DNA from: a virus
Direction: 5' to 3' (one strand)
IMG/VR virus record: IMGVR_UViG_3300005529_000007
Location: 3,169 to 67,168 of that record
Length of the DNA stretch: 64,000 bases
The notes under the pieces were generated by a model. The model had not been told where the DNA came from. It saw only the letters and a list, made by a program, of their open reading frames with translations, and did no database searches. Both the position numbers and the translations under genes were made by a program. Below are positions 602 through 16,429 of the stretch, one piece after another (position 1 is the first letter of the stretch; each line of letters starts with the position of its first letter).

Positions 602-921
602 TGGCAACATATTCAAGTATTTTCATCCCCGCTTGCAGTGGATCTGCCTCCACACAGGACATTAGCGGTTCTGTGGGAGCGGCCTCGGCATCGGGCGAGA
701 TCGTCCTGGGTAAGTATCGCCTCTTTGCGATCAATGCCTCGGGAGATCTGAACATCATCGTGGGGCAGGCAGGTGTGCAAGCGCCTACGGCTGCCAACTT
801 CCGCATTCCCTCCGGGGTTGTGGCGGTCTACGACCTGGGTTCTCACGCCGACAGGATTCGCCTCTTCAACAACGGTGCTGGTTCGGTCACGTACTGGATT
901 CAGCCCCTGGAGCGCACCTAA
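601..921 (+). CDS. Small beta-rich putative virion protein
   Basis: 106 aa, translationally coupled within the structural operon. Confidence 0.65.
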   Translation: MATYSSIFIPACSGSASTQDISGSVGAASASGEIVLGKYRLFAINASGDLNIIVGQAGVQAPTAANFRIPSGVVAVYDLGSHADRIRLFNNGAGSVTYWIQPLERT

Positions 922-1802
922 TGAAAAAACTCCTCTTAACGTGCCTTCTCCTAGTGGGCAGCGCCTTCGGGCAGCTCGGGCAGTTCGGGGGAGGGACGAG
1001 CAACGGCTCAGGGAGCTCCGGGACGCTCAGTGCAGGCACACCGCTCTGCATTGGAGGTGACACTGGATGGTCCAGGTCGGCGGCAGCTATTTGGAACGCG
1101 GGAACGTGCGCCAATGGCAACGCCACAGGGACTATCAACGCAGCCACGATCAATGCTGGCTCGGGTGTATTCTCCACTGGAACAGGCGCAGGGCAACTTA
1201 CGCTTGGCCAGGGTGCAGCTCCGGGAGCGCTCACGGCGAATACTTGGAACCTCTATGCCCCTGCGACGCTCACAACTTCCTATGGCTGGACCCTACCTGC
1301 GGCGGGCAACACTGGCGCAGCCCAGGGACTCCTGGTAAGCCAAGCTACAGGCTCTCCTCTCAATTCCAATCTTAGTTTCTTGACGCTGTCTAACCCCACT
1401 ACGACTGGTGGGTATGCGACCTTCACGGGCACGCTGACTAATAACAACGTAGCTTGTATCCTCGGGACCTCCCCCAACCAGGACATCGGCAACTGTGGCG
1501 CTTCTGCCTCGTTGAACGGCCTGAACTTCACCAAGCTCAACGCCAATACCAACGGCACGCACTTCACGGCCACTACTGCCAACAAGGACATCTACGGCGT
1601 CTGTGCCTTCGCTGCCGCAACAACCTGCTCAATCGTTTTCACCACGAACTATTCATCGACTCCTGGCGTGCTAATCACGCCCCTGATTCCTGGCTCCACC
1701 ACCTTCACCGTTACTGCCGTGGCCACGACTGGCTTCACGATCACAGCCAGCGCCTCCTTCACCGGGAACGTGGCCTACCTAACGTTCGGTGACCCGAACT
1801 AA
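921..1802 (+). CDS. Tail fibre-like protein with N-terminal signal peptide
   Basis: Leader MKKLLLTCLLLVGSAFG; G/T/N/S-rich body; C-terminal beta domain typical of fibre tips (TTGFTITASASFTGNVAYLTFG). Confidence 0.7.
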   Translation: MKKLLLTCLLLVGSAFGQLGQFGGGTSNGSGSSGTLSAGTPLCIGGDTGWSRSAAAIWNAGTCANGNATGTINAATINAGSGVFSTGTGAGQLTLGQGAAPGALTANTWNLYAPATLTTSYGWTLPAAGNTGAAQGLLVSQATGSPLNSNLSFLTLSNPTTTGGYATFTGTLTNNNVACILGTSPNQDIGNCGASASLNGLNFTKLNANTNGTHFTATTANKDIYGVCAFAAATTCSIVFTTNYSSTPGVLITPLIPGSTTFTVTAVATTGFTITASASFTGNVAYLTFGDPN

Positions 1803-3595
1803 TGTTCCGTAAGCTCATCGCAGTCTTAGCGCTGTGTGCTTCTAGCTTCGCTGTTACAGCGGGGCATGGCTGGAAAGGGATTACCCTCACGGCTACGCCA
1901 GGACTTCCTGGTTGCGTTGGGGGCTCTCTCGTCTGCGGGAACCTGGGCACCTCTGCCACGATCCAAACCGACATCGTCAATGACACCACCATCATGACGA
2001 ACATCAAGCCTGCCTTTCAGCCGAACGTGGCCTGGGCAGCTTGGGACGGCGATCAGAATGGCAATGGTACTTGTGCAACCAACCACACATCTGCCTGTGT
2101 GGACTGGACGCAAGTAGACAACATGTTGATGCAGTACGTGAGCGCAGGTGTGGTTGTCAACCCCATGATGGTCCCTACCCAGGGCATCCAGGCGGCGATT
2201 GAGAACTACTTGCCGACGTATGTGACAAGTCCTACGTATGCCACGACCCTCGGGGCCCTGCCGAATACCCTCACTTGTTGCAATAACTTCTCAGCTAGTC
2301 TCTGGACTGGCACCAGTGTAAACACCGGAACGAACTGCGCAGGAGGGGATGCAAACACCGTCTGCGTGAACGTGGGTCCGAATTTCACCACGGGTAGTTC
2401 CTGGGTGGGAATGGGAGTAGTTGTGGGGACTTCGGTCTTTACGATAGCTTCTGTTACCAACACCACCAACCTAGAGCTTACTACCAGCCCTGGGAATCAA
2501 TCAGCAGTCTTCTTTGGGGTAGGTAGTCCGTTTGGTTCTGGTGCGAACTGCGGAACTCCGCCGTGCACCTATCCCCAGTGCGGCGGCACAAACGGCTGCC
2601 TCTGGACACAGAGCCAATTCAACGGCAACCAGGGCGAGCCCGTGCAATACGAGATCCCCTTCCAGACTGCCTGGCAAGTCGCCATTGGCAAGATCCTCCG
2701 ACATTTTTCAGGGAATACCTCCCTCTGCCAGTCCGACCAGGCCACGGGAGATGTGACCGATTGCACCCAGGCGAATCAGATCGCGGCTGCTATTGGCTAT
2801 GTCCGCTTCGGCTTCGGCGGCAACTCCGAGAACTTCGGCATTTGCTTCAACCACTGGACGTTTAACGTAAACAGTTTCCTGGGGACAGGCTTTACAAATG
2901 CCGAGGATGAATACATCCTCCACGCCTCCACGAACTACATCCAGACGATGTTCAACTATACCCAGAGCCTGGCCACGACCTACAACGTGCCCTTTGATCT
3001 GGTGGCTGACACGCATGGCTGGGGCGCTGGCGCAGGCGATGTCAACGCCGCGAATGCGGAATTTAAGTACGCAGTGGCCGTGGGCTGGGGCTCCGGCAAC
3101 CACGGAATGCAGAAGTCCGACCTTACGAACTTCGCCACGGGCGTAGCTACGAATGCTAACTGGCTAGGGAATCATCTCCTCTACGCTGGCCAGACCTTGG
3201 ACTACATGCAGCTCTTTGCTGCGGACGATCCAAGTTGCATGTTGGGCGCGTGCGCGAGCACCAATCCAAATGCCGTCCAGGTCGGTGCCCTTCCTCCGCT
3301 TCTAGTGTTCGCCTCCGAGCATGGGATTCGTCGAATCGAATTCACCATTTGCCCGGTTGTGGGACTCCACTTCACCGTAGGCAACTACGCCTCACTGCCG
3401 ACGAACGGCCTGGCTTCTGGGAACAACTTGAATTGCTCCTCGGGCTGGGTCAGCTCTGCCACCTTCAATGCCCTGGGAGGCCCCACCGGGGTCTACTTCC
3501 AGGCCATGCAGAACTTCGTCAACGGCACCCCTGTGTCAGCCTCCGCCCTCTCGGGCAGCGTTGCCATCAAGGGGAACAACGCCATACTTCACTGA
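1802..3595 (+). CDS. Cys-rich exported protein, possible glycoside hydrolase or virion appendage
   Basis: Signal peptide MFRKLIAVLALCASSFA; about 20 Cys; WAAWD...DWTQVDNML segment resembles TIM-barrel glycosidases. Confidence 0.6.
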   Translation: MFRKLIAVLALCASSFAVTAGHGWKGITLTATPGLPGCVGGSLVCGNLGTSATIQTDIVNDTTIMTNIKPAFQPNVAWAAWDGDQNGNGTCATNHTSACVDWTQVDNMLMQYVSAGVVVNPMMVPTQGIQAAIENYLPTYVTSPTYATTLGALPNTLTCCNNFSASLWTGTSVNTGTNCAGGDANTVCVNVGPNFTTGSSWVGMGVVVGTSVFTIASVTNTTNLELTTSPGNQSAVFFGVGSPFGSGANCGTPPCTYPQCGGTNGCLWTQSQFNGNQGEPVQYEIPFQTAWQVAIGKILRHFSGNTSLCQSDQATGDVTDCTQANQIAAAIGYVRFGFGGNSENFGICFNHWTFNVNSFLGTGFTNAEDEYILHASTNYIQTMFNYTQSLATTYNVPFDLVADTHGWGAGAGDVNAANAEFKYAVAVGWGSGNHGMQKSDLTNFATGVATNANWLGNHLLYAGQTLDYMQLFAADDPSCMLGACASTNPNAVQVGALPPLLVFASEHGIRRIEFTICPVVGLHFTVGNYASLPTNGLASGNNLNCSSGWVSSATFNALGGPTGVYFQAMQNFVNGTPVSASALSGSVAIKGNNAILH

Positions 3596-3849
3596 TGGGC
3601 AGAATATATATCTATAAAAATCCCCGCACCCCCTTTAGGAAGCTCCCTAAGGGCGTGAACCTCCACCTCGTGGAGCCGCCACAGTACGTCTGTGCGAAGT
3701 GCCGAGAGTACGCCAAGGAATACTCCGATGGCGTCATCTGGTGCGACAAGTGCGGTGGGCCCAAAGAACAATCCGACCTCGTCAATCTCCGTCGCGGAAG
3801 ATCGCGTGTGACGCCAACCCCTGAATGGAAACGCATCAACGTTGATTAA
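3595..3849 (+). CDS. Zinc-ribbon protein
   Basis: ATG 3595 overlaps the upstream TGA; CAKC and CDKC motifs. Confidence 0.65.
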   Translation: MGRIYIYKNPRTPFRKLPKGVNLHLVEPPQYVCAKCREYAKEYSDGVIWCDKCGGPKEQSDLVNLRRGRSRVTPTPEWKRINVD

Positions 3850-5644
3850 GAAACTTCTTCTTAGCTTAGTCCTGCTAGGTTCTGCCTTCGCCCAGGTGAA
3901 CACGGCCAACATTGGCTTGATTCAGATCCCAGATGGCACGCTCAACTGGGGCGGATCAATGCGCACCAACTTCAACATCCTGGATAACCTGTTCTCTGCG
4001 TCGAATCCAACCGTTGTCCCAGGCTTCAAGGTTACGAATCTTTATCTCCCTGCGGTCTCTGTCGGGAGCTGTCTCAACGTCGGGGCGCTTAACGTCGTCA
4101 CCGGATACAACTGCCTGAACTTGGTATCTGGTCCGGGCATGAACTGCACGGGCTTCTCGGGCACGGTTACCTGTGGTATGACCAACACGGGTGTGACTGC
4201 GGGAAGCTACTCGAATGTCAACGTGACGGTGGATGCTCAGGGAAGAATCCTTGGTATCTCCAGCAGCACTGGCGGGACAGGCCTTCCAGCGACAGTCAAC
4301 TATCTCCCCTCTGGGTCGAACCAAGCCACCATCCAAGCTGCCCTGACGGGCGCGATCAGCGGAGAGACCATCTGGTTCTCAGGGTCCTATACCGCGTGCG
4401 GACTTACTTTGTCCGTGCCGGATGTGCACCTCCTTGGAATGGACGAAGACGGTTCAGTAATTTCCTGCGCAACCGCCAGTTCACCCATCTTGACAGTCAG
4501 CGGCGCAGGCGACCAGGTAGACAACCTGAACCTGAAGCACGTGACCAACTCCCCTACTTGTCCTGGAGGCAATGGAACTGCAACCTGCGGAGACGGCATT
4601 CAAGTCTTCCCCTCAGGCTCTCGGGTCAGGATCTCGAACGTCCACACGAATTTCAACTACAACGGTATCGCCCTGGGCTGGACGGCCTACGCGGTTCTCG
4701 ACAACTTCATCTCCGAGTTCAATAACAACCACGGAGTAGCGTTCATCCTGGACGCCAGCAACCCCCACATGCAGTGGGAGGTGGGACGCGGACTCTCTGA
4801 GCAGAACCTGGGCAATGGCTTCGATGTCACCTGTCCAGCGTCGTTCACCAATGTCCACACTCCTGGCCCGCACTTCTCGGGCAAGACCCAGACCTTCGGC
4901 AACAACGGCTACGGCTTCAACTTCGACTGCACGGCAGCGACCTCGTCCGGGATCTCGGACATCTGGATAGACGGAGCATTCTCCTCCCAGAACAACAAGT
5001 CAGGCTTCCACTTCAGCAACGGTGGGCGGAACGTCATCATGACGGGAACCTATTCCGAGCAAGCTGGAAGCTACGCGGGTGGCGCAGGATTTCCAAACTG
5101 TAGCGGCAATCCTTGTTCGCAAACCCCCTCGGGCTCGGGCTACGGAATCGAAGTAACCTCCGCTTGCGACAACACCTTTCCCCCGGATATTACGGGCGGC
5201 GGCATATGGCAGAACGACTACAGCGGAATCTTTGCTGGATGCCCTGGCATGTCGATCACTGGCGTCAATACGTTTGACAACGGCTTCGCCTCTGCCTCGG
5301 CCCAGACCGAAGCAGGCATCACCATCGCGGCAGACAACGTGAACGTCACGGGTGGGTACAACCAGAAGGGCTCGCATGAGACTTCCGGTATCTACATCCA
5401 GTCTGGGGACAAGCCGAACATCATGGGCTACCAGTGCGATTCCAACGTGAACAACTGCATCAACGTGGCCTCGATCCCCGCTAGTGGCTTCATCGAGCGC
5501 ATTGGCAACTCCCGCTGGACACAGTCGGACTCGGTAGCCTCCGGTTCCTGCCAGAACGGCGACAAGTGGACGCGGACGAATGCTGCCAACACTGGCACCT
5601 CCGAATGGACGTGCAAGAACGGCGCATACGTGGCCATTAACTAA
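3842..5644 (+). CDS. Tailspike, right-handed beta-helix (pectin-lyase-like), with signal peptide
   Basis: Leader MIKKLLLSLVLLGSAFA; head-binding-like segment TANIGL..P.G..NWG...NFNILD; fibre motif GVTAGSY...TVDAQGRI; then N/G-rich beta-helix repeats. Confidence 0.8.
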   Translation: MIKKLLLSLVLLGSAFAQVNTANIGLIQIPDGTLNWGGSMRTNFNILDNLFSASNPTVVPGFKVTNLYLPAVSVGSCLNVGALNVVTGYNCLNLVSGPGMNCTGFSGTVTCGMTNTGVTAGSYSNVNVTVDAQGRILGISSSTGGTGLPATVNYLPSGSNQATIQAALTGAISGETIWFSGSYTACGLTLSVPDVHLLGMDEDGSVISCATASSPILTVSGAGDQVDNLNLKHVTNSPTCPGGNGTATCGDGIQVFPSGSRVRISNVHTNFNYNGIALGWTAYAVLDNFISEFNNNHGVAFILDASNPHMQWEVGRGLSEQNLGNGFDVTCPASFTNVHTPGPHFSGKTQTFGNNGYGFNFDCTAATSSGISDIWIDGAFSSQNNKSGFHFSNGGRNVIMTGTYSEQAGSYAGGAGFPNCSGNPCSQTPSGSGYGIEVTSACDNTFPPDITGGGIWQNDYSGIFAGCPGMSITGVNTFDNGFASASAQTEAGITIAADNVNVTGGYNQKGSHETSGIYIQSGDKPNIMGYQCDSNVNNCINVASIPASGFIERIGNSRWTQSDSVASGSCQNGDKWTRTNAANTGTSEWTCKNGAYVAIN

Positions 5645-6213
5645 TGCCAGGCTTTGGTTCAAATCCGTTCGGACAGACAGCCTTTGGTGATCCCCCTGTA
5701 CCGACTTTAACGGTCTCAGGTTGCATCCCGCTGATTCCTTCTCCGAATGGACAGAACTGGACCCTGGGCATCACCGACAACGGAGAACTCACCACCACCC
5801 CAGCGCGGCAGGCAGGCATTCCTTCTCCTATGAAGATCGCCTCCCCGAGCTTTAGTTGGCTCATCACTGCCGACAACAACGGGGCAATCGTAACTACCCA
5901 GTTCTCCCTGGACTCCTCGCCCTTCTACTGGACGTTGAGATCCCTCCCTAGCTTCCTGCGCTATGCCATCTCAGCCGACGATCTCGGGGAACTTCAAACG
6001 CAACTGTTCAATGTTGCGGCGAATATCTCGGCTACTGTTCCTTATCCCCAAGATGTAACCATGTCCCGCTGGCCTGACACCATTGGCCTGATCTGCTACT
6101 CCTGTGGCAACGCCACGGTCAGCCTCTCAGCGGACATGAGCTGCTGGTGCTGTTCCTGCAACTCCTTCGTAGACGTAGAAGACACCAACGAGCTGGTCAT
6201 CATAGACGAGTAA
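5644..6213 (+). CDS. Putative tail-associated protein with three short repeats and a C-terminal Zn ribbon
   Basis: Repeats WTLGITDNGELTT / WLITADNNGAIVT / YAISADDLGELQT; CYSC...CWCCSC. Confidence 0.6.
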   Translation: MPGFGSNPFGQTAFGDPPVPTLTVSGCIPLIPSPNGQNWTLGITDNGELTTTPARQAGIPSPMKIASPSFSWLITADNNGAIVTTQFSLDSSPFYWTLRSLPSFLRYAISADDLGELQTQLFNVAANISATVPYPQDVTMSRWPDTIGLICYSCGNATVSLSADMSCWCCSCNSFVDVEDTNELVIIDE

Positions 6214-8111
6214 TGTTTAAGAAATTTATAGCAATCCTCACCCTGGCTGCTACGTGCTTCGCACAGACGCACACTACCGTGATGAAGGATCTGAATAGCA
6301 CCATCACTGGCGCAGTCTCCACCAGGCAGTGGATCGACGCCTCGGACACCTCCCGGTTCACGGGCGATGCCTGCCAGATGATTCTCGCGGCCCAGCAAAG
6401 CACAGCCGTGGGAGTGGTGATTGATGCCCGTGGCTTCACGGGCGACCAGGCATGTTCGGTTAATCCGTTCTCCTTTAGCTACCAGGGGACCATTCTCCTG
6501 GGGCCTACGTTCTACCACATTGCCACGCCCTGGATGCTGCCTCACAAGGTCAATCTTCTCGGAGCTGGCTGGGAGACGGGCCTGGGCAATAACTCCATTG
6601 GCTCGACGGTTATTCAGGCTTGCAGCGGGGCTGGACAGTATTGTGCCGGAGCATTTCCCTCGAATGGGATCATGTTCTGCTACACGGACGATGGCACTAC
6701 GTGCAACCACACTAGCGGACCAGTCTTTGACTCGCCTTTATATAACTTAACCTTCGACGGGAACAACGTCCTAGGCATCACTCTCTTGGCGAACTTCGTA
6801 GGCCAAGAGGGAACGGGCTTCTTCCGCATCAACGGCTTCGGCTACGGCAACCATGGCGTGGGTATCAACCTCGGTGGGATTGGCAAGGACCCCGTAGACA
6901 ATGGTCCTGGCTCCCAGAACACCACCCTCGACGAGATCTCCCTCTCGCTCATCACAGGCAATACCTGCACCGTAGATTCGATTGGCATCCTGGTGGACAC
7001 TGGCGGTCCGGCTTTCCCGAGCGCCCGCTCGATCAGCAATGTGACCATCACCAACCAGGGATGCGCCTCGAACCTCTACCCGGATGTAAACATCCAGATC
7101 AGCACAGGCTCCATGAAGCTGGACTCGATTCACTGCGAGAGCTTTCAGCGAGCGTGTGTCACCCTGGGGTATAGCCCAGTTGGCTTAGCAGGCGGCGCTT
7201 CCGGCATCTCCATCGACGAGATCAACTGCGGGAACTGTGCGCCACAGCCTTCGACCAACCTGGCCACCACCACTTCCATTAGCGGCAACACCGTCACCGT
7301 CACAGGCCTGGGCACGAACACCAACATCCGCGTGGGCGACCTGGTCATCATGTCGGGTTGCGCCCCGGCTGGCTACAACAACGCCTACGTAGTTCTTACT
7401 ACGACCGCCACGACTTTCACAGGCGTCATCGGCGGGAACACCCCTCCTGTCGGGAACGGCACCTGTAGTGCCTACCAGCCAGAGAACACGGTTGTTCTGA
7501 TCTCCAATCAATATGCGGCAGGCACGGCCTCTATCTCTCTTTCCAACGTTAGGGCTGTCGGGCCTAATCTCCCCTTCGACACGATTGTCGATGAAATCAA
7601 CGCCACGGCCAGCACCGGAGCCACGGTCAATACCACCAACGCGAACGTGCTAAATGCTGCGGTTGAAAATCAAGTCTCCCTCTACATCCTGGGCGATGCC
7701 AGCTCCTTCCCCGCATTCGGCACGAACGTCTTCACGACTTCCTGGCAGATCCCGCAAACGCAGCTTTCGGTGATGTCCACACAGGAAATTGTCACCTCGT
7801 ATAACTGCGCTGCCCAAGGCGGCAACTGTCAGAACGGCGGTCCCTCACAGCCAGCGGTCATTGCGGGCCTGGTCGCCATCGGCACCGGACAGACCACCGT
7901 CACAGTGACGACGAAGGCTGTCACATCGAACTCCGAAATCTTCATTCAAGAAGATCCCTCTGCCGGGAGCAGGTTCCTGGCCACGTGCAGCACCTCTCAA
8001 TTCGTCAACGCCATGGTCACCTCTCGCAGCGCTGGAGTCAGTTTCACGATCACGATCTCTGCCCCGGTTACAAGCAATCCCCTCTGTTTTGACTTCTGGA
8101 TAGTCAACTAA
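6213..8111 (+). CDS. Tailspike/fibre (beta-helix) with signal peptide
   Basis: Start ATG 6213 overlaps the upstream TAA; leader MFKKFIAILTLAATCFA; beta-helix body; fibre-tip C-terminus (TVTVTTKAVTSNSEIF...GVSFTITIS...FWIVN). Confidence 0.78.
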   Translation: MFKKFIAILTLAATCFAQTHTTVMKDLNSTITGAVSTRQWIDASDTSRFTGDACQMILAAQQSTAVGVVIDARGFTGDQACSVNPFSFSYQGTILLGPTFYHIATPWMLPHKVNLLGAGWETGLGNNSIGSTVIQACSGAGQYCAGAFPSNGIMFCYTDDGTTCNHTSGPVFDSPLYNLTFDGNNVLGITLLANFVGQEGTGFFRINGFGYGNHGVGINLGGIGKDPVDNGPGSQNTTLDEISLSLITGNTCTVDSIGILVDTGGPAFPSARSISNVTITNQGCASNLYPDVNIQISTGSMKLDSIHCESFQRACVTLGYSPVGLAGGASGISIDEINCGNCAPQPSTNLATTTSISGNTVTVTGLGTNTNIRVGDLVIMSGCAPAGYNNAYVVLTTTATTFTGVIGGNTPPVGNGTCSAYQPENTVVLISNQYAAGTASISLSNVRAVGPNLPFDTIVDEINATASTGATVNTTNANVLNAAVENQVSLYILGDASSFPAFGTNVFTTSWQIPQTQLSVMSTQEIVTSYNCAAQGGNCQNGGPSQPAVIAGLVAIGTGQTTVTVTTKAVTSNSEIFIQEDPSAGSRFLATCSTSQFVNAMVTSRSAGVSFTITISAPVTSNPLCFDFWIVN

Positions 8112-10208
8112 GTGCCTCTAGAGTACAACAACCCATCCGTTGCTCCCATGGTCTCGGTCTCCGAAGACCCTAACGAGCAGATTACCAACAAGGCTATTAC
8201 CAGCCTGCGTCGTATGCGGTACTTCCGCAAGCAATACGACCAGCGCCGGGCCTACTTCTATCGGCAATACATTGGGCAGCGGGACCAGAGATTCTACCCG
8301 GATAACATCACCCCCAGGGCGAACTCCTTTGTTCCATATCCTCTCTCCAACGTAGAGACCATCGTCTCCCGTGTTCTGGATGCCTTCTTTTCATATGAGG
8401 ACTTCTTTGATTCGCGTGGCCGCTCTGCGCAAGATGAGCCCTCTGCCGAGAAGATGAAGCACGTCCTGCTCAAGATGTTCCACGAGGCCAAGCTCATCCA
8501 GTCCTTCGAGACCCTGGTGCGGAACATCGCCATCTACGGCCACGCAGGAATGAAGATCGACTGGGATTGGGACTTCGATTGGGTGACATACGCCAAGCCC
8601 ATCTTTGCCATGAGCGACGATGGCATGACGCCGCTGATGCAGCCGACCCTGGACCCCAATACGATGCAACCTGTCATGCAGCCTGTCATCCTGGGGTATC
8701 AGCCAGATCGCAAGCCAGTGGCGCGGAACAGGCCGCGCTTCATCCCCATCGACGTGTATGACCTGATGGTCGATCCCGATGGCGGAATCATTGCCCATCT
8801 CACCGAACGCACCCTTGGACAAATGAAGCGCGAGCAAGCCATGAGTCTCATGGCAGCGCAGCAGGACCCCAGCAAGAAGCCGCTCTATCTCCCAGAGGCA
8901 ATGGAGACCTTGGAGCGCCGCGTCAGGGAAAGCGTCAAGGCTCCCGACAACCCGGATGATACTGTCATCCGCCTAGCAGAGCTCTGGGATGAATATGCCC
9001 AGACTCAAACCATCATGACCTACGGCGAAGATGCCGAGGCCATAAGCTGGAAAGATCTCCGCGCATCCTACAGGGCCGCAGGCTACAGCCCCTTCAAGCG
9101 CAAAGTTTACGCAGGCACGCCTCTCCTTCTCTACCACGGAGAGAGCCCCTTCATGCACAAGAAGTGCCCGATTGTGCACACGAGCTTCATCAAGATTCCG
9201 AATGAAATCTTCGGCCTGGGTGCCATCGAGATCATCTCGGACTTGACCGAGTCCCTGAACAAGTTCGTCAACATGGTTACGGACAACTGGAACCTGGGCA
9301 TCAATCGGCGGTTTGCCTTCGACGTGAACGCCGACATCGACCATGAAGCACTGAACAGTTTCAACGTCCCAGGCGGACGAGTGGGCGTCTCCGGCGATCC
9401 CACCAAGGTCATCATGCCCCTGCCCTTCTTCACCCCCCAGGCAGGCGACTACCAGGTCCTCGATCTCTACAAGGGCATGATCGAAATGACCTCCGGGGTG
9501 AGTGACTTCTACTCCAAGGCAGTGGGTTCCCCGACTGGGAATCGCACCGCCACAGGCATCAGCAATGTCATGCAGGAGTCCAACTACAGGTTCAAGATGT
9601 TCATCCGCAACCTGGAACTGGATGTCCTACAGCCTCTCCTTGAAATGTGCGCCTCGATGGTCCAGCAGTACTTGACGGATGACATTGAAGTGCAGATCAC
9701 CGGGGAGAACCCCACCATCAAGAAGTGGATCACCCTGCGCCCCGAGGAACTCATCGGGACTTTGCAGTTCGATCTCATTGCCGCCAACTACGCCAGCAAT
9801 CGGATGATTCGCCAGAGAAACCTGCTGGCCTTGTTCAACCTGGCTGCACAGAGCCCGTACCTCAACCAGTACGAGGCCCTTAAAGAACTCTTCGTGGCCT
9901 TCGAGGTGCGCAACGTCAACAAGCTGTTGTACGCCCCGCCTCAAGTTCAGATGATGCAGCTCCAAGAACAAGAGCAGCAGATCAAGATGATGGCCTTGCA
10001 GAGCATGATGGACACCGAAGGGAAGGCCCGGTTAAGCCAGGCCAAACCGCAAATGGGCAAGGGCCCAGACGGGCGTCCGCGCAAGATGCAGTTCGAGGGC
10101 AAGATCCCAGGCGCAGGCCTGATGGGTCCGATCCGCGAGCTCGCGCAAAGCATGGGAGCCAACGGCCTCGGCCTTGAAGGCATGGGTCAGGTTCCTGAGG
10201 GAGAGTAA
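8112..10208 (+). CDS. Portal protein
   Basis: 698 aa upstream of scaffold and capsid; IYGHAGMKIDW and RTATGIS motifs; Q/M-rich C-terminal tail typical of podoviral portals. Confidence 0.88.
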   Translation: MPLEYNNPSVAPMVSVSEDPNEQITNKAITSLRRMRYFRKQYDQRRAYFYRQYIGQRDQRFYPDNITPRANSFVPYPLSNVETIVSRVLDAFFSYEDFFDSRGRSAQDEPSAEKMKHVLLKMFHEAKLIQSFETLVRNIAIYGHAGMKIDWDWDFDWVTYAKPIFAMSDDGMTPLMQPTLDPNTMQPVMQPVILGYQPDRKPVARNRPRFIPIDVYDLMVDPDGGIIAHLTERTLGQMKREQAMSLMAAQQDPSKKPLYLPEAMETLERRVRESVKAPDNPDDTVIRLAELWDEYAQTQTIMTYGEDAEAISWKDLRASYRAAGYSPFKRKVYAGTPLLLYHGESPFMHKKCPIVHTSFIKIPNEIFGLGAIEIISDLTESLNKFVNMVTDNWNLGINRRFAFDVNADIDHEALNSFNVPGGRVGVSGDPTKVIMPLPFFTPQAGDYQVLDLYKGMIEMTSGVSDFYSKAVGSPTGNRTATGISNVMQESNYRFKMFIRNLELDVLQPLLEMCASMVQQYLTDDIEVQITGENPTIKKWITLRPEELIGTLQFDLIAANYASNRMIRQRNLLALFNLAAQSPYLNQYEALKELFVAFEVRNVNKLLYAPPQVQMMQLQEQEQQIKMMALQSMMDTEGKARLSQAKPQMGKGPDGRPRKMQFEGKIPGAGLMGPIRELAQSMGANGLGLEGMGQVPEGE

Positions 10209-10423
10209 TGTTCCACCACTGGGATTATGTCGCGCTGTGTGTCGCCATGGCAGTTGTCTTCGCCCTGGAGATGCTGGGCGTGTTCGGCAAGCATTACGTC
10301 ACGATCACTTACATCATCCGCACCTACATGCCCTGGGCGGCACGGGTAGCCGTGTGGCTCTGGCTAGGGCACCACTTCCTTAAGCCATTGCCTGAATGGC
10401 TCCAGAAGTATCTGGGGAAATAA
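10208..10423 (+). CDS. Small membrane protein
   Basis: 71 aa with two hydrophobic segments, coupled to the portal stop. Confidence 0.6.
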   Translation: MFHHWDYVALCVAMAVVFALEMLGVFGKHYVTITYIIRTYMPWAARVAVWLWLGHHFLKPLPEWLQKYLGK

Positions 10424-10427
10424 ATTA

Positions 10428-10458
10428 CCACTACCCCCAAAACGGGTCGCATAGACAC
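10428..10458 (+). repeat. Dispersed repeat R1 (CCACTACCC-n-AAAACGGGTCGCATAGACAC)
   Basis: Matches copies at 22801, 22901, 39135, 39296, 54838 and 59987. Confidence 0.8.
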
Positions 10459-10468
10459 AAACAAACAT

Positions 10469-10825
10469 ATGTTCAAGAGGGATATTCACCACTACCACGT
10501 TGTAGAAGTCGAGAAAGGGAGCAAGCTCCCCGAGATGAACGGAGACCTCCGCGAATCTCTCAAGACTCTTCAACATCACCCCGGTTTCCAATACCTGATC
10601 CAGCGCTGGCGTTTTCACAAGGCAGCCCTTGAGACTACTCTCAAGGAAGGTTTGAATCTTACTGAGGTTCAACTCCGCTACCTGCAAGCTGGCATCTACT
10701 GGGCAGGTAAGATCGAAGACGAGATCAATCTTCTCACCAAGGCAACTCCCAAGTCCCGCCCTGCCGAAGACGACGAACATGCGGCCTTCGCCGCCATGGC
10801 GTCCAATCTCGAACTCGTTAAATAA
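10469..10825 (+). CDS. Hypothetical head-module protein
   Basis: 118 aa between portal and scaffold. Confidence 0.7.
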   Translation: MFKRDIHHYHVVEVEKGSKLPEMNGDLRESLKTLQHHPGFQYLIQRWRFHKAALETTLKEGLNLTEVQLRYLQAGIYWAGKIEDEINLLTKATPKSRPAEDDEHAAFAAMASNLELVK

Positions 10826-10866
10826 GCTCGGACCCACAAGGTCCATATCTCCCACAAGGAACTGTA

Positions 10867-11778
10867 ATGCCCAATCAAGTGTCCCCTGGTTTCGACCGTG
10901 GCTTTGTCAGCATGAGCGATGCCCCTGGGGCAGACATTGGTTTCGACGATTTGTTCCCACCCGAAACCAACAATCTCGGTGCGCCACAAGCGCCACCTCA
11001 GGGAACTAACCCTCAAGAGCCGCCACAAGCTACACCTCCTACCGAAGCGGATTTCATCCGCGCTGGTCAGACGGTCTACAGAACTCGTGAGGATGCAGAA
11101 AAGGGAATCGAACATAAAGACTCCCTGATCTCGCGCTACCGGACATTCCTTGCAGACCAAGGAATCGACCCTGACGAACTCAAACCTCGCCCCAAAGCTC
11201 CCGAGCCCACAACGACTCCCGAGCCTCCTTCCCAGTTCAAGTACTACCAGAATCCCAAGATGTTCGATGAATTGTCCGAGGCTGTCAAAGCCCAGGACAA
11301 GGTTCGTTATCAGCAGATCCTGGAACAGCACAACCTGGAGCAGATGAACGCTGTCTTCGCTCCTGTTGCGCCGTACATCGCTGAAGTCGCCCGGCAACGG
11401 GCCGTCCGTCAAGTTGCGGACGAAGTCCCAGACTTCACACAGTTCATCAATAGCCAAGGCTACCGAGAAACCCTCAAGAGCCTGCCCAGCTTAGAGATGG
11501 CTGTCAAGAACGCGGAAAGCAACTTTGCGATGGCAGAGAACCTAGGCGAACTCTACAAGATCGCCTACCTGGTCAATCAGGGGCGGAACCGAAGCGCAAA
11601 TCCGGCACCGATTCAACAGTCTGTGCCTCCCCCGGCTGTGAGACCGACAACCGCACCCTCTACCATGACTCCCCCCGCCCCCGCTCCCCCGACTAGCGAC
11701 TGGACCACTAATCGTGATTCACGTCGCCAGCTCATCAAGGACATGGAGGGCAGAGGCATAAAAGACGTTGCGTTTTAA
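10867..11778 (+). CDS. Capsid scaffolding protein
   Basis: Pro-rich termini, helical core, directly upstream of the capsid gene; SD AAGGA. Confidence 0.75.
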   Translation: MPNQVSPGFDRGFVSMSDAPGADIGFDDLFPPETNNLGAPQAPPQGTNPQEPPQATPPTEADFIRAGQTVYRTREDAEKGIEHKDSLISRYRTFLADQGIDPDELKPRPKAPEPTTTPEPPSQFKYYQNPKMFDELSEAVKAQDKVRYQQILEQHNLEQMNAVFAPVAPYIAEVARQRAVRQVADEVPDFTQFINSQGYRETLKSLPSLEMAVKNAESNFAMAENLGELYKIAYLVNQGRNRSANPAPIQQSVPPPAVRPTTAPSTMTPPAPAPPTSDWTTNRDSRRQLIKDMEGRGIKDVAF

Positions 11779-11813
11779 CTACTCACAGCAGGGTCCAATT
11801 CACGAGGAAAACC

Positions 11814-12824
11814 ATGTTTAAGAAGTTTCTTTCCCTTCTCTTCATTGTCCTCGGTTTCGGACCTGATGTCGTAACTGTCACAGCAGGTACGGCAGGCAAT
11901 GCGGGGTCAACAGCCGCCGAGCTGATTACCTACATGTCTGCCCGTCTCTTGGAAGTGGCCGAGTTCAATACCATCCTCGACCAGTTCGGAGACAAGCATC
12001 CCCTCCCCAGCAACTCCTCGAAGACGATTCGTTTCGTCCGTGAAGAGAAGCTGACGGTTGCTGCTACGCCTACTCAGTTGACAGAAGGCATCCCGCCCGA
12101 TGCTGTGGGCCTGACCCTTAACCAGATTGAGGCCACGATTGAGCAGTATGGTTCCGTGGTTCGTTTGTCAGATCTTGCTGAGATCACCGCTCGTCATTCC
12201 ATTACCGAGCGCACGATCTACATCCTAGGTCTGCAAGCGGCTGAAACCTACGACCAGCTCATCTTCAACGTCCTCAACGCTGCAACTAACACCTACTACC
12301 CCAACAACAGAGCGGGTGATACCTCTCTGCTTGGCTCTGACTTGGTCGGCTTCCCTGACCTGGTCGAACTGGATGCTGCCCTGCAAGATCAGGGTGCGCG
12401 GCCCTTTGAAGGGGGCGAATACGTTTTCGTCACCCCGCCTCAGGTCTATGCAGGCATCCTGAAAGACCCGGACTACAAGGCCTCCAATCAGTTCCGCGCC
12501 CCTGAAAAGATCTGGCGTGGTGAAGTCGGCGCTCTCGGTGGATTCCGCGTAATCCGCTCGAACAGCGCTGCATTCGCTGCCACCTCTCAGGCGGGTGCGG
12601 GCCAGGCGAGCAAGGTGTTTAGCTCGTTTGCCATTGCTCGTTTTGCTTATCAGATTACTGATTTGCAGAACCTGCGCGTCTATGTCGTGGCCCCTGGTGG
12701 CCAGACTGACCCGTTGCAACAGAGCCGGAAGATCGGCTGGAAGTTCGCTTTCAAGTCGCTGATAACCAATCAGAATTGGGTGCGGCGAGTTCGTTCAGCG
12801 GGTGCAAACTCCATCACTAACTAA
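11814..12824 (+). CDS. Major capsid protein (N4-gp56-like) with hydrophobic N-terminal leader
   Basis: LPSNSSKTIRF, LTEGIPP, QYGSVVRLSD, GEVGALGGFRVI and DPLQQSRKIGWK motifs; SD GAGGA. Confidence 0.9.
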   Translation: MFKKFLSLLFIVLGFGPDVVTVTAGTAGNAGSTAAELITYMSARLLEVAEFNTILDQFGDKHPLPSNSSKTIRFVREEKLTVAATPTQLTEGIPPDAVGLTLNQIEATIEQYGSVVRLSDLAEITARHSITERTIYILGLQAAETYDQLIFNVLNAATNTYYPNNRAGDTSLLGSDLVGFPDLVELDAALQDQGARPFEGGEYVFVTPPQVYAGILKDPDYKASNQFRAPEKIWRGEVGALGGFRVIRSNSAAFAATSQAGAGQASKVFSSFAIARFAYQITDLQNLRVYVVAPGGQTDPLQQSRKIGWKFAFKSLITNQNWVRRVRSAGANSITN

Positions 12825-12826
12825 TA

Positions 12827-13396
12827 GTGCCTAAGACCGCAAAGCAAAAGTCCCAGAACAGAATTTGGTACCACCGTCATCGTGATGAACAAATCATCAA
12901 GATGAAAGAGTACCGGAACAAACTCAAAGACCGCTGCTTTGCGGCTTACGGTGGCTATGTGTGCGCTTGTTGCAAAGAGACTGAACAGTCTTTCCTTTGC
13001 ATCGACCACATCAACAACGACGGTTATCAACATAGAAAGGAAATCGGGTTCAGGGGAGGAATTGGAATTTACCTTTGGTTAATTCGCAATAACTTCCCTC
13101 CCGGTTTCCAAGTTCTCTGTTTCAACTGTAACCAAAGCAAGCGTCTAAACAAAGGCGTTTGCGCACACAAAGGAACAAAGATGAGTCATTCATTTGAGCA
13201 ACCTGGTCCTGGAGATGGCATCCACGAAATGCGGAGGCCGGAAGGTCACGCCCATCTCGACCAGAAACTCGACAAAGGGATGCGGTCTCCAATGATTGGT
13301 CAGCTTCCCATGAACGCTGGCCTAGAGAGCCCCTCTGAATCTGCCCAGAATGGTAGTGGCCACGGTGATAGTGGCTACACCGGGAGCGGCTTCTAG
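12827..13396 (+). CDS. HNH endonuclease fused in frame to a ~71 aa protein with its own start at 13181
   Basis: CACC...IDHINNDG...LCFNCN; internal AAGGAACAAAG-ATG at 13181 starts MSHSFEQPG. Confidence 0.75.
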   Translation: MPKTAKQKSQNRIWYHRHRDEQIIKMKEYRNKLKDRCFAAYGGYVCACCKETEQSFLCIDHINNDGYQHRKEIGFRGGIGIYLWLIRNNFPPGFQVLCFNCNQSKRLNKGVCAHKGTKMSHSFEQPGPGDGIHEMRRPEGHAHLDQKLDKGMRSPMIGQLPMNAGLESPSESAQNGSGHGDSGYTGSGF

Positions 13397-13740
13397 TGGC
13401 TGAGACCAAACCCAAAGTAGAGACCAAGGACCCTTGGCAGACGCCAAAGGAAACCTGGCAGTACGTCACCGTCCCGGACGAAGATCCGCTAGGTCATGCT
13501 CACCCCACGGTCAGCTTGAACAAGCATGTCTTCGAGCCGGGGAAAACGTATCTGCTTCCCCCACAGGTCGCGGAGTATGTAACTGATCGCGTGCGCGTGT
13601 ATGCGCGTTCGTGCGTCCGCCAGCTCCAGCCCAACGTGGATCTCAAGTCTCTGAGAGAAGTTGCTGTAGGTACAGCCAACTCAACTGCCAGCCAATATAC
13701 CAGTGGTGCGCAGCTTGTAGATGGCTCCACCCTTCCGTGA
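13396..13740 (+). CDS. Hypothetical head-module protein
   Basis: 114 aa coupled ORF. Confidence 0.65.
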   Translation: MAETKPKVETKDPWQTPKETWQYVTVPDEDPLGHAHPTVSLNKHVFEPGKTYLLPPQVAEYVTDRVRVYARSCVRQLQPNVDLKSLREVAVGTANSTASQYTSGAQLVDGSTLP

Positions 13741-14120
13741 CCTGGGACGACTACAACAAAGCACTCTTGGCCTTAACCATGTGGCGTGAAGCCCGTGGGG
13801 AGGGCCGAGAGGGCATGTACGCAGTGGGATGCGTCGTGCGTAACAGGGTCGTTGCGAACGACTGGGAACTGGTCATGGCGAAGAAACGGCAGTTCTCATC
13901 CCTTACTGCGCCAGGAGATGCCATGCTTGTGCAGTGGCCCCTCCAAGGCGATCTCCCCTTTGAGACGGCAATGGAACTTGCCGAGGCCATTTACTCCGGT
14001 TCCCTGCCGGACATTACCGAAGGCGCAACTCACTACTTCAACCCAAACGTAGTTCTTCCAACCTGGGCGAAGGACATGACCAAGATCAAGTCCATTGGCC
14101 ATCATGACTTCTATAAGTGA
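13737..14120 (+). CDS. SleB-like cell wall hydrolase (endolysin candidate)
   Basis: GTG 13737 overlaps the upstream TGA; EARGEG..GM.AV..V..NR, QFS, GATHY and IG.H.FY motifs. Confidence 0.88.
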   Translation: MTWDDYNKALLALTMWREARGEGREGMYAVGCVVRNRVVANDWELVMAKKRQFSSLTAPGDAMLVQWPLQGDLPFETAMELAEAIYSGSLPDITEGATHYFNPNVVLPTWAKDMTKIKSIGHHDFYK

Positions 14121-14731
14121 ACCCAACTGTCCTTCTTGTTCGGCACGCAGAAACAGAACTAAACGATCCTAAGAATGAGAAGATCCGGGGATACTCGGAT
14201 ATTCCCATCTCCTACAAGGGCAAAGACGGCTTGCGGAATACCGCGAGCTTTCTCAAAGAGCAAGCGTTTCCGATTGCCTTTGTACTCAGCTCCCCTCTCC
14301 AGCGGGCAATGATGTCCGCGAACGAAGTGGCGCAGCCCTTCGGAGCCAAGGTCATTCCCAACAATTCCCTTCTCCCTTGGAGCCTGGGCAAGTTGACAGG
14401 CGAGCCCGTGGCCATGGCTGCCAAGGAGATGAATTACTACCAAGAGTATCCCGACATCAAGGTGCCTGAAGGTGAAAGCTACCGCGACTTCTACAACCGC
14501 TGGGCCGTTGGCCTGGACAAGATGTTGCTCTATGCCGAGCAGCATCCTGAGGAGGTTCTAGTTGGAGTGGTTCATTCGCGTAACCTACTGGCTCTACCTA
14601 GTATTTTGGGCTCACGTGATATTGGGGACGTGCCTGTCAAAGGGGGCCCACCTCCCGAAAGCGTCACGCAAATCTCGCAAGACGAAAACGGAAACTGGCA
14701 CATGAAAGTAATCCACCAGGAGCCAGCGTAA
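14117..14731 (+). CDS. Histidine phosphatase (phosphoglycerate mutase family)
   Basis: LVRHAET, SSPLQRA, GES...R and VVHS motifs. Confidence 0.88.
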   Translation: MNPTVLLVRHAETELNDPKNEKIRGYSDIPISYKGKDGLRNTASFLKEQAFPIAFVLSSPLQRAMMSANEVAQPFGAKVIPNNSLLPWSLGKLTGEPVAMAAKEMNYYQEYPDIKVPEGESYRDFYNRWAVGLDKMLLYAEQHPEEVLVGVVHSRNLLALPSILGSRDIGDVPVKGGPPPESVTQISQDENGNWHMKVIHQEPA

Positions 14732-15267
14732 TGTCCTTCCTAGACATCATTAAAAAAGCCTTTCCCTTTATATCTGCTGCGGCCTCCCTCGGTGGTCCGC
14801 TGGGCACGATGGCAGCGAATGCCGTAGGGAAAGCTCTCAACGTAGACGCCAGCAAGGCGGTTACTCCTGAGAACATTGAAAGCATAATCACCCAGGCCTT
14901 TGCCGATCCCGCACAGCGTGCGGCCCTCCTACAAGCGGAGCAAAACTTCCAAGCCCAGATGGCTGAGCTCGGCTACAAAGACGCCGAGACCATGGTGGAA
15001 GATGCGAATGCTGATCGAGCCAATGCCCGCGCCAGGGAGATTGCAGTAAGGGACTGGACTCCGAAAGTCCTAGCCGCCTGCGTCACCATCGGCTTCTTTG
15101 GTGTGTTGATGCTGATGGGATTCCACAAGACGCCCGACTCAGCCCACGACGCTTGGATGCTAATGCTCGGTGCCCTCAGCACAGCCTGGGGCGGAATCAT
15201 CCAGTACTACTTCGGCAGCTCGGCAGGCAGCGCACGCAAGACTGAACTCATGGCCCAGAATGGCTAA
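14731..15267 (+). CDS. Holin (3TM/GTA-holin-like)
   Basis: DRANARARE coil, two C-terminal TM segments, YYFGSSAGS motif. Confidence 0.75.
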   Translation: MSFLDIIKKAFPFISAAASLGGPLGTMAANAVGKALNVDASKAVTPENIESIITQAFADPAQRAALLQAEQNFQAQMAELGYKDAETMVEDANADRANARAREIAVRDWTPKVLAACVTIGFFGVLMLMGFHKTPDSAHDAWMLMLGALSTAWGGIIQYYFGSSAGSARKTELMAQNG

Positions 15268-16429
15268 TCTATATTCCGCAACTACAACTTGCCAGAACGT
15301 AATTAGCGCAACCGCGCAAGACGTTCGCAACACCCTCGATACTACGCAGAACCAAGCTCTGCTCATTGACTACACCAACCGTGTGCAGCTAGAGATGCTG
15401 CGCTGGAGTAGGTGGATCTTCTTGCTTAGTGCACCGCAGAGGTTCATCACCCAACTTGGCGTGACTGACTACTGGCTTGGGGCCACGGCAGGAAACTCCC
15501 AGGGGCAGTACGACACGGGCCTCAACCTTACGGACATCCGTACCATCAAGCCTGGCACGGTCTTTGACAGGACAAACTTCACCCCTCTCCAAAAGGTAGA
15601 CGAGCCACCTCTGGTTGCGAAGGTCGCATACCCGGATGCTACATCTCGTCCCGCTCGGCCCTCGCAATGGCGGCAAGCCATCGACACGCCGAACGTAATG
15701 AACATCTATCCGGCCCCGGATAACCAGACGCTTTACTCTCCCCAGCCGGAGCCGCCGATCTGCACGACAGCTACTTCAGGAGCTCTGGCCAATCGCCTCT
15801 ACTGGGTCACGGTGACATTTGTGGACTCGACTGGGGCAGAATCTACTGCTCCCCGCGCCACCAAGATCTTCGTCCCCGCAGGCAAGGTGCTGGTTGTCAA
15901 TCCCCCGAAGGAGCCGCTCATCGCTGGCACCACGGGCATCAAGTACGACCGCTACAACGTCTACGCAGTCTCGTCGCCGTTCGGCACGACCCTAACTGCC
16001 AACCAAGCTACCCAACAAGCAACTCTCATTTCCACCAGCTCCAACTGGCAGGAGCCCAACTCCGGCCTCACCACAACTGGTCTCAATCCTCCGACCAACA
16101 ATGCCGTGGAGCCCATCGACGGCTACATCATCGAGTTCCGTTACTGGAAGCAGCGCAAGCAGGTTGCTGCCACAAGCGATGTCCTCCAGATCCCGGACGA
16201 CTACAAAGACATCGTCATCGCGGGAGTCAATGCGCTTTCATTTCAATTCCTCAACCGTATGCCCGACGCCAGTGCCTGGATGCAGCGCTACCGCGAAGGC
16301 CTCACGGGAATCATCCGAGATATAAACCTGTTCCCACGCGGAAGCGAATTCATTCGCCCCGACTCCGCAGGAATTGGTGGCCAGCTCCCGGCTATCGAAT
16401 CCATCGACCTCTCGGTCTTGCAGAACTAA
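15260..16429 (+). CDS. Head-tail adaptor / tail tubular protein A-like
   Basis: ATG 15260; RWSRWIFL, NIYPAPD and IPDDYKDIVI segments; lies upstream of the large nozzle-like gene. Confidence 0.65.
   Translation: MANLYSATTTCQNVISATAQDVRNTLDTTQNQALLIDYTNRVQLEMLRWSRWIFLLSAPQRFITQLGVTDYWLGATAGNSQGQYDTGLNLTDIRTIKPGTVFDRTNFTPLQKVDEPPLVAKVAYPDATSRPARPSQWRQAIDTPNVMNIYPAPDNQTLYSPQPEPPICTTATSGALANRLYWVTVTFVDSTGAESTAPRATKIFVPAGKVLVVNPPKEPLIAGTTGIKYDRYNVYAVSSPFGTTLTANQATQQATLISTSSNWQEPNSGLTTTGLNPPTNNAVEPIDGYIIEFRYWKQRKQVAATSDVLQIPDDYKDIVIAGVNALSFQFLNRMPDASAWMQRYREGLTGIIRDINLFPRGSEFIRPDSAGIGGQLPAIESIDLSVLQN

Follow-up and report, generated by a model that had tools for sequence, protein, structure and literature searches.

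Sec-type leaders and paired cysteines on tailspike-like and other proteins encoded ahead of the portal gene of an uncultured tailed phage

Why would a tailed phage encode tailspike-like proteins behind export signals? To our knowledge, the particles of tailed phages are assumed to be assembled entirely in the cytoplasm, where the known phage tailspikes, which have no leader, are folded. The question is raised by the virus record IMGVR_UViG_3300005529_000007 (67,168 bases, with a 120-base direct terminal repeat, rated 100% complete), of which bases 3169-67168 were analyzed as one stretch of 64,000 nucleotides (the window; all coordinates given without a contig name are positions in it). Four open reading frames (ORFs) of the + strand, named after their first base, are at issue: ORF921 (921-1802, 293 aa), ORF1802 (1802-3595, 597 aa), ORF3842 (3842-5644, 600 aa, TTG start) and ORF6213 (6213-8111, 632 aa). 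A preliminary description of the window had proposed that all four are fibre- or spike-like proteins with cleavable leaders of the general secretory (Sec) type and paired cysteines, and that they mature in the periplasm. Here, leaders were found on all four and a tailspike-like fold was predicted for two. The overall best explanation is probably a fast-changing late cassette which encodes proteins that leave the cytoplasm and which is read together with the portal and head genes.

All four N-termini show a basic n-region, a hydrophobic core and a small-x-small cut site, as had been quoted for them; they start with MKKLLL (ORF921), MFRKLI (ORF1802), MIKKLL (ORF3842) and MFKKFI (ORF6213). They were scored with a hand-made leader rule. 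Under it the first residues must be net positive, the core must be uncharged and 8-16 residues long with L/A/V/I/F/M/W/C making up at least 65% of it, the residues at -1 and -3 must be small, and +1 must not be Pro. The predicted Sec-type leaders, all on the + strand, occupy 921-971 in ORF921 (17 aa, cut before QLGQF), 1802-1852 in ORF1802 (cut after SFA in the preliminary description, or after VTA by the leader rule), 3842-3892 in ORF3842 (cut before QVNTA) and 6213-6263 in ORF6213 (cut before QTHTT). Relatives of ORF3842, which starts with TTG, begin MIKKLL or MIKRLL, and the public gene call P0024 (632 aa) has the same start as ORF6213. The rule was passed by 4/4 and picked exactly these four among the 22 + strand ORFs of at least 90 aa in positions 1-27800; in the whole record it marked 8 of 72 ORFs, namely the four, ORF 57952(-), and three doubtful antisense or internal-start matches. 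Gln stands at the predicted +1 position in three of the four. Two other kinds of leader were considered and rejected: twin-arginine translocation (Tat) leaders, as the twin-arginine motif is absent from all four, and lipoprotein leaders, as no canonical lipobox (L-x-[GAS]-C) is present and the leader Cys of ORFs 921, 1802 and 6213 are not preceded by one. As a separate observation, the 237-aa product of ORF 57952-58665 (-), in the other arm, has a leader-like start with Q residues where the cut is predicted and contains 8 Cys in its mature part; it had no PHROGs match at E ≤ 0.1 and may be an exported early or lysogeny protein.

The conservation of the leaders in homologs, which had been set as a check, was followed in the ORF3842 family and in 40 viral contigs that encode a related portal. 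Ten of the 14 ORF3842-family proteins pass the leader rule, and the other four comprise two N-terminal fragments, one leader missed by the rule and one unclear case. Among the close relatives (portal identity 69-78%), the rule is passed by 15 of the 33 ORFs of at least 250 aa that lie within 8.2 kb upstream of the portal, and the 18 large upstream ORFs that fail it include a terminase, proteins truncated at the end of a contig, two proteins with a clear but missed leader, and a conserved leaderless family of ∼360 aa that starts with MAYQF (the MAYQF family). When all ORFs of at least 90 aa were counted under the strict rule, 29/95 upstream of the portal passed, against 3/86 downstream of it. 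Moreover, leader types are re-used in the relatives' cassettes: the leader and the few residues that begin the mature protein reappear on bodies that are not otherwise related. Only 2/29 large upstream ORFs pass in the distant relatives, and large leader-bearing ORFs (489-1339 aa) are located downstream of the head genes in the distant relatives L016, L017, L018, L020 and L026. The false negatives of the rule include at least L006-3482, L010-3193 and a 2330-aa protein of contig L002.

The leaders are accompanied by a high Cys content. ORF921 contains 7 Cys (6 in the mature protein), ORF1802 20 (19 mature), ORF3842 18 (18 mature) and ORF6213 19 (18 mature), which amounts to 2.4-3.4% of residues, compared with 0-0.6% in the portal, scaffold, capsid, ORF15170, ORF16430, ORF18917, ORF19964, ORF20675 and a 1647-aa protein, five of which have no Cys at all. 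The closely spaced Cys pairs of the preliminary description were recovered in three of the four proteins, where the within-pair spacing departed from random placement (p = 0.045 for ORF921, 0.018 for ORF3842 and 0.022 for ORF6213), but not in ORF1802 (p = 0.24). The mature Cys of ORF3842 and of ORF6213 fall into nine consecutive close pairs each, and the six of ORF921 into three. Within the ORF3842 family, ten of the Cys are invariant or at least 90% conserved, and the Cys count is even in 9/10 proteins with a called leader.

The same association was found in the relatives, for which distinct ORFs of at least 200 aa in L002-L042 were surveyed and leaders were called by the rule. The median Cys content was 2.1% in ORFs with a called leader (n = 23) and 0.5% in those without (n = 174; Mann-Whitney p = 2e-10), and 13/23 leader-bearing ORFs have Gln at the predicted +1. 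The mature Cys count was even in 22/23 leader-bearing ORFs (binomial p = 3e-6), although exact duplicates only were dropped, so that near-identical pairs (for example L009-7440 and L012-1342) count twice and somewhat inflate the counts. The single odd case turns even if the cut is shifted by two residues. In the parity control (no called leader, at least 4 Cys) 44/69 counts were even, in a set that still contains several obvious missed leaders.

As to what these proteins are, a β-helix, as previously described, was confirmed for ORF3842 by a structure model and its fold matches, and for ORF6213 from the model held in the Atlas; both are modelled as tailspike- or depolymerase-like β-helices. 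ORF3842 is ordered as leader, conserved N-terminal module of ∼45 aa, fibre-shaft motif (residues 113-140), right-handed β-helix (∼150-540) and small C-terminal domain, and it has 14 strong relatives (E 1e-152 to 1e-72). Its AlphaFold model, made with the relatives, shows a confident right-handed β-helix from about residue 150, at a mean predicted local distance difference test score (pLDDT) of 68 and a predicted template modelling score (pTM) of 0.64, with the N-terminal 150 residues below pLDDT 50. The best solved fold matches were AlgE epimerases, the tailspikes TSP2/TSP3 of CBA120, the lyase RbmB, the Pam1 tailspike and phi29 gp12 (Foldseek E 1e-6 to 1e-5); PL6 lyases were matched as well. 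Against viral models, 225 matches with E ≤ 0.001 were obtained, many of them labelled as pectate-lyase-superfamily, tailspike or depolymerase proteins. The GVTAGSY..TVDAQGRI motif, which had been read as a fibre hallmark, also stands: residues 106-143 match a repeat that occurs five times in the fibre-like protein P0017 (55-59% identity over 33-38 residues), which itself begins with Mtd_N.

The suggested check for a trimeric β-helix was passed by residues 113-445 of ORF3842 in three copies, with a score of 0.90 compared with 0.00 for the best of three controls, a partner pLDDT of at least 88 and at least 90% of contacts common to the runs; the mark used is attained by 20/30 solved one-chain pairs and by 1/23 single chains. 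Given that trimeric tailspikes have already been solved, this pass may reflect likeness to them rather than independent evidence for the homotrimer that is predicted here. The claim of a head-binding-like N-terminus was not borne out, since Pfam gave no match for the N-terminal pieces even at E ≤ 1 and the same N-terminal module is present on a cellular gene. In fold, predicted trimer, the position of the shaft motif N-terminal to the helix and the variable late cassette, ORF3842 resembles the trimeric β-helix tailspikes (CBA120 TSP2/TSP3, Pam1, phi29 gp12, Det7/Dettilon); it differs from them in its family-kept Sec-type leader and its 18 Cys in consecutive pairs, in having no recognised particle-binding domain, and in matching neither solved chains nor deposited phages by sequence.

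ORF6213 consists of a leader, a β-helix body and a C-terminal domain of ∼100 aa that is common to other cassette proteins and a cellular gene. Just ∼30-45 residues stand ahead of its β-helix. The Atlas's own model aligns to a Beta_helix cluster (TM-score 0.53 by query and 0.75 by row), and its feature neighbours (0.88), which serve as leads only, were phage depolymerase and pectate-lyase clusters. By sequence it is a near-orphan, as a word-seeded protein search returned itself and one partial match. For the four ORFs together, Pfam and PHROGs gave no match and no S74 domain, and the PDB gave no match by sequence, apart from three chance-level rows for ORF921. Likewise, no match to ORFs 3842, 6213 and 1802 was found by tblastn among 50,697 deposited phages, and nothing was found in a profile scan of genome contigs with alignment A1.

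The other two proteins do not fit the description of all four as fibre- or spike-like. ORF1802 is predicted to carry, after its leader, a (β/α)8 glycoside-hydrolase-like barrel with an inserted β domain (model pTM 0.72). VIA-align placed it closest to β-amylase 1b90 (Z 21.9, root-mean-square deviation 4.0, 314 residues aligned), followed by GH42 4ucf (19.0), Cwp19 5oq2 (18.4), GH35 and GH5; these TIM-barrel glycosidase matches span Z 21.9 to 15 over residues ∼18-582 at 5-12% identity, and Foldseek alone was weak (E 2e-4, TM ∼0.3). The fold is thus shared with clan GH-A type (β/α)8 hydrolases (β-amylase GH14, GH42/GH35 β-galactosidases, GH5, Cwp19), while Pfam assigned no family to ORF1802 or to its 12 aligned relatives. 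In the sequence columns of alignment A2, E343 is invariant and E513 nearly invariant among these relatives. An exhaustive HMMER search yielded 32 relatives, where a word-seeded search had given only the protein's own truncated copy; the twelve that were inspected have mostly signal or lipoprotein leaders, and the leader rule or a lipobox marks 18 of 31 (own copy excluded), many of the others being short fragments. Cellular copies occur in 3/151 sampled genomes of the class of genome G001, with leaders on three of the four loci inspected. The family in which sequence places ORF1802 is one of bacterial enzymes that are secreted or are lipoproteins, and a fibre is ruled out by the barrel fold.

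ORF921, whose body is rich in Gly/Ser/Thr, has no fibre hallmark, and no family or fold match was found for it in Pfam, PHROGs, PDB sequences or the Atlas. Its leader and the start GQ(L)GQF(S/G)GGG are common to ORFs of 140-624 aa in L006, L007, L008 and L022, the bodies of which differ.

The cassette is translationally coupled into the portal operon. Stops and starts abut or overlap throughout, in the order orf305, orf601, ORF921, ORF1802, an 84-aa ORF, ORF3842, orf5644, ORF6213 and the SU10/P22-type portal gene (8112-10208, +), the first base of which directly follows the ORF6213 stop. The two small genes orf305 and orf601 (305-921, +), of which orf305 has 4 Cys, are coupled to ORF921. The apparent gap between ORF1802 and ORF3842 is occupied by the 84-aa ORF (3595-3849, +), which has two CxxC pairs (CxxC...CxxC) and no leader; its ATG overlaps the ORF1802 TGA and its stop overlaps the TTG start of ORF3842. 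The G+C content at third codon positions (GC3) is 0.66-0.72 in the cassette and 0.63-0.77 in the neighbours. The coupled operon and the matching GC3 argue against separately expressed cargo. The large terminase gene (terL; phrog_2, E 4e-24) extends beyond the window's end, and the earlier placement of the cassette between terL and the portal is loosely true: the stretch from terL to ORF921 comprises ∼3.2 kb of the record plus the first 920 bases of the window, and several more ORFs are located in it.

While orf305 and orf601 are conserved throughout the relatives, the content of the cassette turns over. No BLAST match to ORFs 921, 1802 and 3842 was found among the relatives' upstream ORFs, even where the portals are ∼75% identical. 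The last 60-120 residues of ORF6213 match one ORF each in L005, L006, L009 and L012, and its residues 75-339 weakly match one in L008. The leaderless orf5644 (5644-6213, +, 189 aa), with a C-terminal Cys cluster and two or three copies of a W-x-L-...-D-x-G-x-L-x-T-T motif, has relatives (BLAST E 1e-29 to 3e-17) beside leader-bearing ORFs in L006, L007, L009, L010 (as the C-terminal half of a 391-aa ORF), L012 and L041; it might, speculatively, be a candidate adaptor or chaperone. In the same slot, distant relatives have leaderless proteins with carbohydrate-binding-type domains, one with the Pfam domains Fn3_assoc/CHB_HEX_C_1 and another with a weak Laminin_G_3 match, and for these slot proteins PHROGs gave no match. 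In L002, an unrelated viral contig of 64.6 kb, the region 7025-19400 behind the head genes encodes a leader-bearing protein of 2330 aa, in which long fibre repeats are combined with an ORF3842-type β-helix; the next three ORFs (633, 1065 and 175 aa) each include a leader-like start, and membrane proteins come after them. The lineage itself is uncultured: the nearest deposited phages show portal identities of just 20-27% (36 records, all below 60%), and the distant relatives are podoviruses.

The host is probably a diderm soil acidobacterium of the class Terriglobia. A metagenome-assembled genome titled Terriglobia includes a 3.3-kb scaffold that encodes a portal relative (49% identity), and the GC content was 56.8% in a 321-kb sample of one genome of that class (G095, L051-L067) compared with 51-60% along the window. 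When the ORF3842 alignment was searched against 301 genomes of the class, 10 weak, partial matches were obtained. One of these, a 513-aa gene on a 4.8-Mb contig of G109 (C1:3981297-3982838, that is L068:313-1851 (-)), is a sibling of the cassette proteins: it resembles the N-terminal module of the ORF3842 family over its leader and first 45 residues (profile E 1e-6; pairwise E 0.002), and over its last 100 residues it shares 44% identity with the ORF6213 C-terminal domain (E 1e-14). Its ten neighbours encode multihaem cytochromes, ResB/CcsA-type assembly proteins, NHL-repeat proteins, a histidine kinase and a SurA-like protein, with one lacking a Pfam match, and no phage family was matched among the ten. 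Other genomes of the class have large ORFs that end in the ORF3842-type C-terminal domain. Since the G109 gene has cassette modules, these modules circulate between cells and their phages.

The leaders of the putative host were compared with those of the cassette. In the G095 sample, 36/214 ORFs have leader-like starts, and Q was found at the predicted +1 in 6/36 and at or beside the cut in 15/36. Porphyromonas gingivalis phages have five genes for secreted proteins with host 'Q-rule' leaders (Gln after the cut), of unknown function and, in the available part of that report, not described as tail parts (PMC10367356). They share with the present phage both the Gln after the cut (after the predicted cut in three of four ORFs here) and a capsid protein with a signal-like or hydrophobic start. 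The Q-rule is stated to be exclusive to Bacteroidetes (PMC10653852), whereas the host hints here point to Terriglobia. The G095 counts, from a small heuristic sample, suggest that the rule may not be exclusive.

From the sequence features, folds, conservation and operon layout we infer a course of export, cleavage and folding, with a substrate and a fate for the proteins. Export through Sec and oxidative folding outside the cytoplasm are, as far as sequence can tell, quite likely. Each of the four proteins would be made with a Sec-type leader and, as the twin arginine is absent, would pass the inner membrane unfolded. Signal peptidase I would cleave the leader, exposing Gln in three of the four, and folding and disulfide formation would occur in the periplasm of the diderm host. 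Such a course explains the leaders, their conservation, the link of the leader to a high and even Cys count, and the likeness to the leaders of the putative host. Passage of late proteins through the host Sec system before lysis is established for tailed phages in the Sec-exported and signal-arrest-release (SAR) endolysins, according to a review of them (PMC6116005); these are peptidoglycan hydrolases of the lysis cassette, unlike the spike-like proteins here. All four proteins would act on host surface polysaccharide.

Several points weigh against this course. The leader rule was drafted after sight of these sequences and is not a trained predictor, and it yielded false positives on the capsid protein in 7 distant relatives. 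The capsid protein of the present phage also has a conserved hydrophobic start, so that such a start alone is no proof of export. ORF1802 has an odd number of mature Cys (19), and its pair clustering was not significant. The models of ORF3842 and ORF1802 have a mean pLDDT of only 68 and 64, the polysaccharide substrate is guessed from the fold, and the host assignment goes back to one 3.3-kb binned scaffold and module sharing. The proposal of export with periplasmic disulfide folding is supported by kept leaders, Cys richness and even counts, while its extension to four spike-like proteins holds for two.

What becomes of the proteins once exported can be read in several ways. The first is that they are free enzymes only, whose targets would be the infected cell's capsule, exopolysaccharide or O-antigen, reached from within the periplasm at first and in the matrix around the cell once it has lysed; this is a serious possibility, somewhat short of an even chance. 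The proposed benefits are an easier release, the prevention of progeny sticking to debris, or a block to superinfection. The ORF1802 family, made up of bacterial secreted or lipoprotein proteins, fits such a role, as do the β-helix fold matches to the secreted bacterial lyases and epimerases AlgE, RbmB and PL6, the non-prophage cellular sibling in G109, and the few residues (∼30-45) before the β-helix of ORF6213. A cell-encoded precedent exists in WceF of Pantoea stewartii, an exported tailspike-like trimeric β-helix that cuts the producer's own exopolysaccharide, stewartan; it is exported by Tat, the route for proteins already folded, and its head domain is P22-like (PMC7949094). The β-helix proteins of the window share the tailspike-like character and differ in being phage-encoded and without a twin arginine, and of the two readings it is the free enzyme that WceF resembles. 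However, free enzymes would leave the phage without a recognised receptor-binding protein, the shaft motif and conserved N-terminal module of ORF3842 and the 2330-aa fibre of L002 would go unexplained, and Sec delivers to the periplasm only. Free glycanases, which the preliminary description had named as an alternative, are at least as likely as joining of the virion.

The second reading, that of the preliminary description, sees in the β-helix proteins, and perhaps in ORF921, tailspikes or fibres of the phage itself, which would mature in the periplasm and bind cytoplasm-built particles when holin lesions or lysis mix the two compartments. It is a tentative proposal, which we consider rather unlikely. 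In the record, nothing else could be recognised as fibre- or spike-like (from the annotations of the genes after the capsid; the rest had no match), and ORF3842 has the architecture of a receptor-binding protein, with an N-terminal module, the shaft motif of an Mtd_N fibre, a predicted trimeric β-helix and a small C-terminal domain. In its variability the cassette resembles receptor-binding loci, its slot is filled in distant relatives by leaderless proteins with carbohydrate-binding-type domains, and a shaft as long as that of the 2330-aa L002 fibre would hardly be needed by a free enzyme. P22 tailspikes bind tail-less heads in vitro, and late docking is thus physically possible. That fibres can fold after export is shown by the MAT fibres of Bdellovibrio bacteriovorus, phage-tail-fibre-like trimers with a signal peptide followed by a conserved domain, swapped tips and, in some, disulfides (PMC10769870). 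These are cell-encoded predator adhesins, some with an S74 chaperone domain, whereas the four ORFs are without S74 and lie in a phage late operon.

Against docking stands the topology. Full-text searches of the literature, in sources available in part, brought up no tail fibre or tailspike of a tailed phage that was described with a Sec leader, and hence no tailed-phage precedent. No known virion-anchor domain was found by Pfam in the N-terminal pieces, and ORF1802, enzymatic and of bacterial type, has no fibre features. The leader with the N-terminal module and the ORF6213 C-terminal domain are also carried by the G109 gene; with the N-terminal module on a non-prophage cellular gene, it cannot simply be read as particle-binding, which weakens the head-binding reading. 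Moreover, the leaderless conserved proteins of the MAYQF and orf5644 families could be the true particle-bound parts, and ORF16430, relatives of which vary in length (810-1062 aa), could carry receptor binding. In its full form, this two-compartment route would have trimeric spikes exported by Sec, trimmed often to an N-terminal Gln, closed by about nine disulfides, and docked within seconds of holin opening, perhaps through orf5644; we regard it as possible but doubtful.

The third reading takes the N-termini as uncleaved membrane anchors or assembly elements, SAR-like or capsid-like, with the proteins tethered or left on the cytoplasmic side, and is improbable. It draws on the major capsid protein (11814-12824; phrog_1357, E 5e-43), the N-terminus of which (11814-11880) is hydrophobic and followed by GFGPDVV, a pattern conserved in close and distant relatives (...GFGADVV, ...GIGDDIV). 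There is no in-frame start before codon 41, and GAGGA lies upstream. No small-x-small (AxA) site ahead of a non-Pro residue is present in this phage, and the segment may be a cleaved or scaffold-binding N-arm. The signal-like capsid N-termini of the Porphyromonas phages were suggested to be removed by the prohead protease (PMC10367356). The four cassette proteins differ from the capsid protein: all have the basic start, the uncharged core and the small-x-small site, Q follows the predicted cut in three of four here and in 13/23 in relatives, and high, even Cys counts accompany the leader, whereas the capsid protein has 0 Cys. The last reading, lysogenic-conversion cargo (morons) by which a prophage would supply surface or secreted proteins of benefit to the host, has in its favour two tyrosine recombinases in the record and the exported proteins of unknown function in host leader style reported for Porphyromonas prophages (PMC10367356), but was rejected as very improbable, given the coupled operon, whose overlapping stops and starts from orf305 to the portal leave, as judged from the overlaps, no room for a promoter or terminator of its own, and a GC and GC3 like those of the neighbours. 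The remaining probability was assigned to explanations that were not considered.

In this complete phage, therefore, the only recognised spike-like proteins carry conserved export signals and paired Cys, with even mature counts in ORF3842 and ORF6213. Either spikes are assembled across two compartments, or the phage deploys a changing set of secreted glycanases and its true receptor-binding protein is still unrecognised. The two-compartment route, if true, would be a new morphogenetic pathway for Caudoviricetes that gives soil phages oxidatively hardened spikes. Both outcomes affect host-range prediction from uncultured soil phage genomes, the expression of depolymerases from such phages, for which oxidising conditions would be needed, and pipelines for annotation in which 'signal peptide' and 'virion protein' are mutually exclusive labels. 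The even-Cys signature (22/23) offers a simple genomic marker for surveying how prevalent such proteins are.

Among the remaining genes of the window, an endolysin-like gene (13611-14120; Hydrolase_2) follows the head genes and stands apart from the leader-bearing cassette, and between it and a holin-like gene (14731-15267) lies a gene of the histidine-phosphatase superfamily (14117-14731; Pfam E 1e-21). Further annotated genes encode a tail protein, an internal-virion-like protein and the 1647-aa protein; the two tyrosine recombinases and a DNA polymerase are located in the opposite arm, and no tRNA was found in the window. Within the head-gene block, a 71-aa ORF (10208-10423) with strongly hydrophobic segments, a small membrane protein, begins at the portal stop codon. 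A gene similar to the histidine phosphatase of 14117-14731 sits upstream of the portal in L034, L035 and L040.

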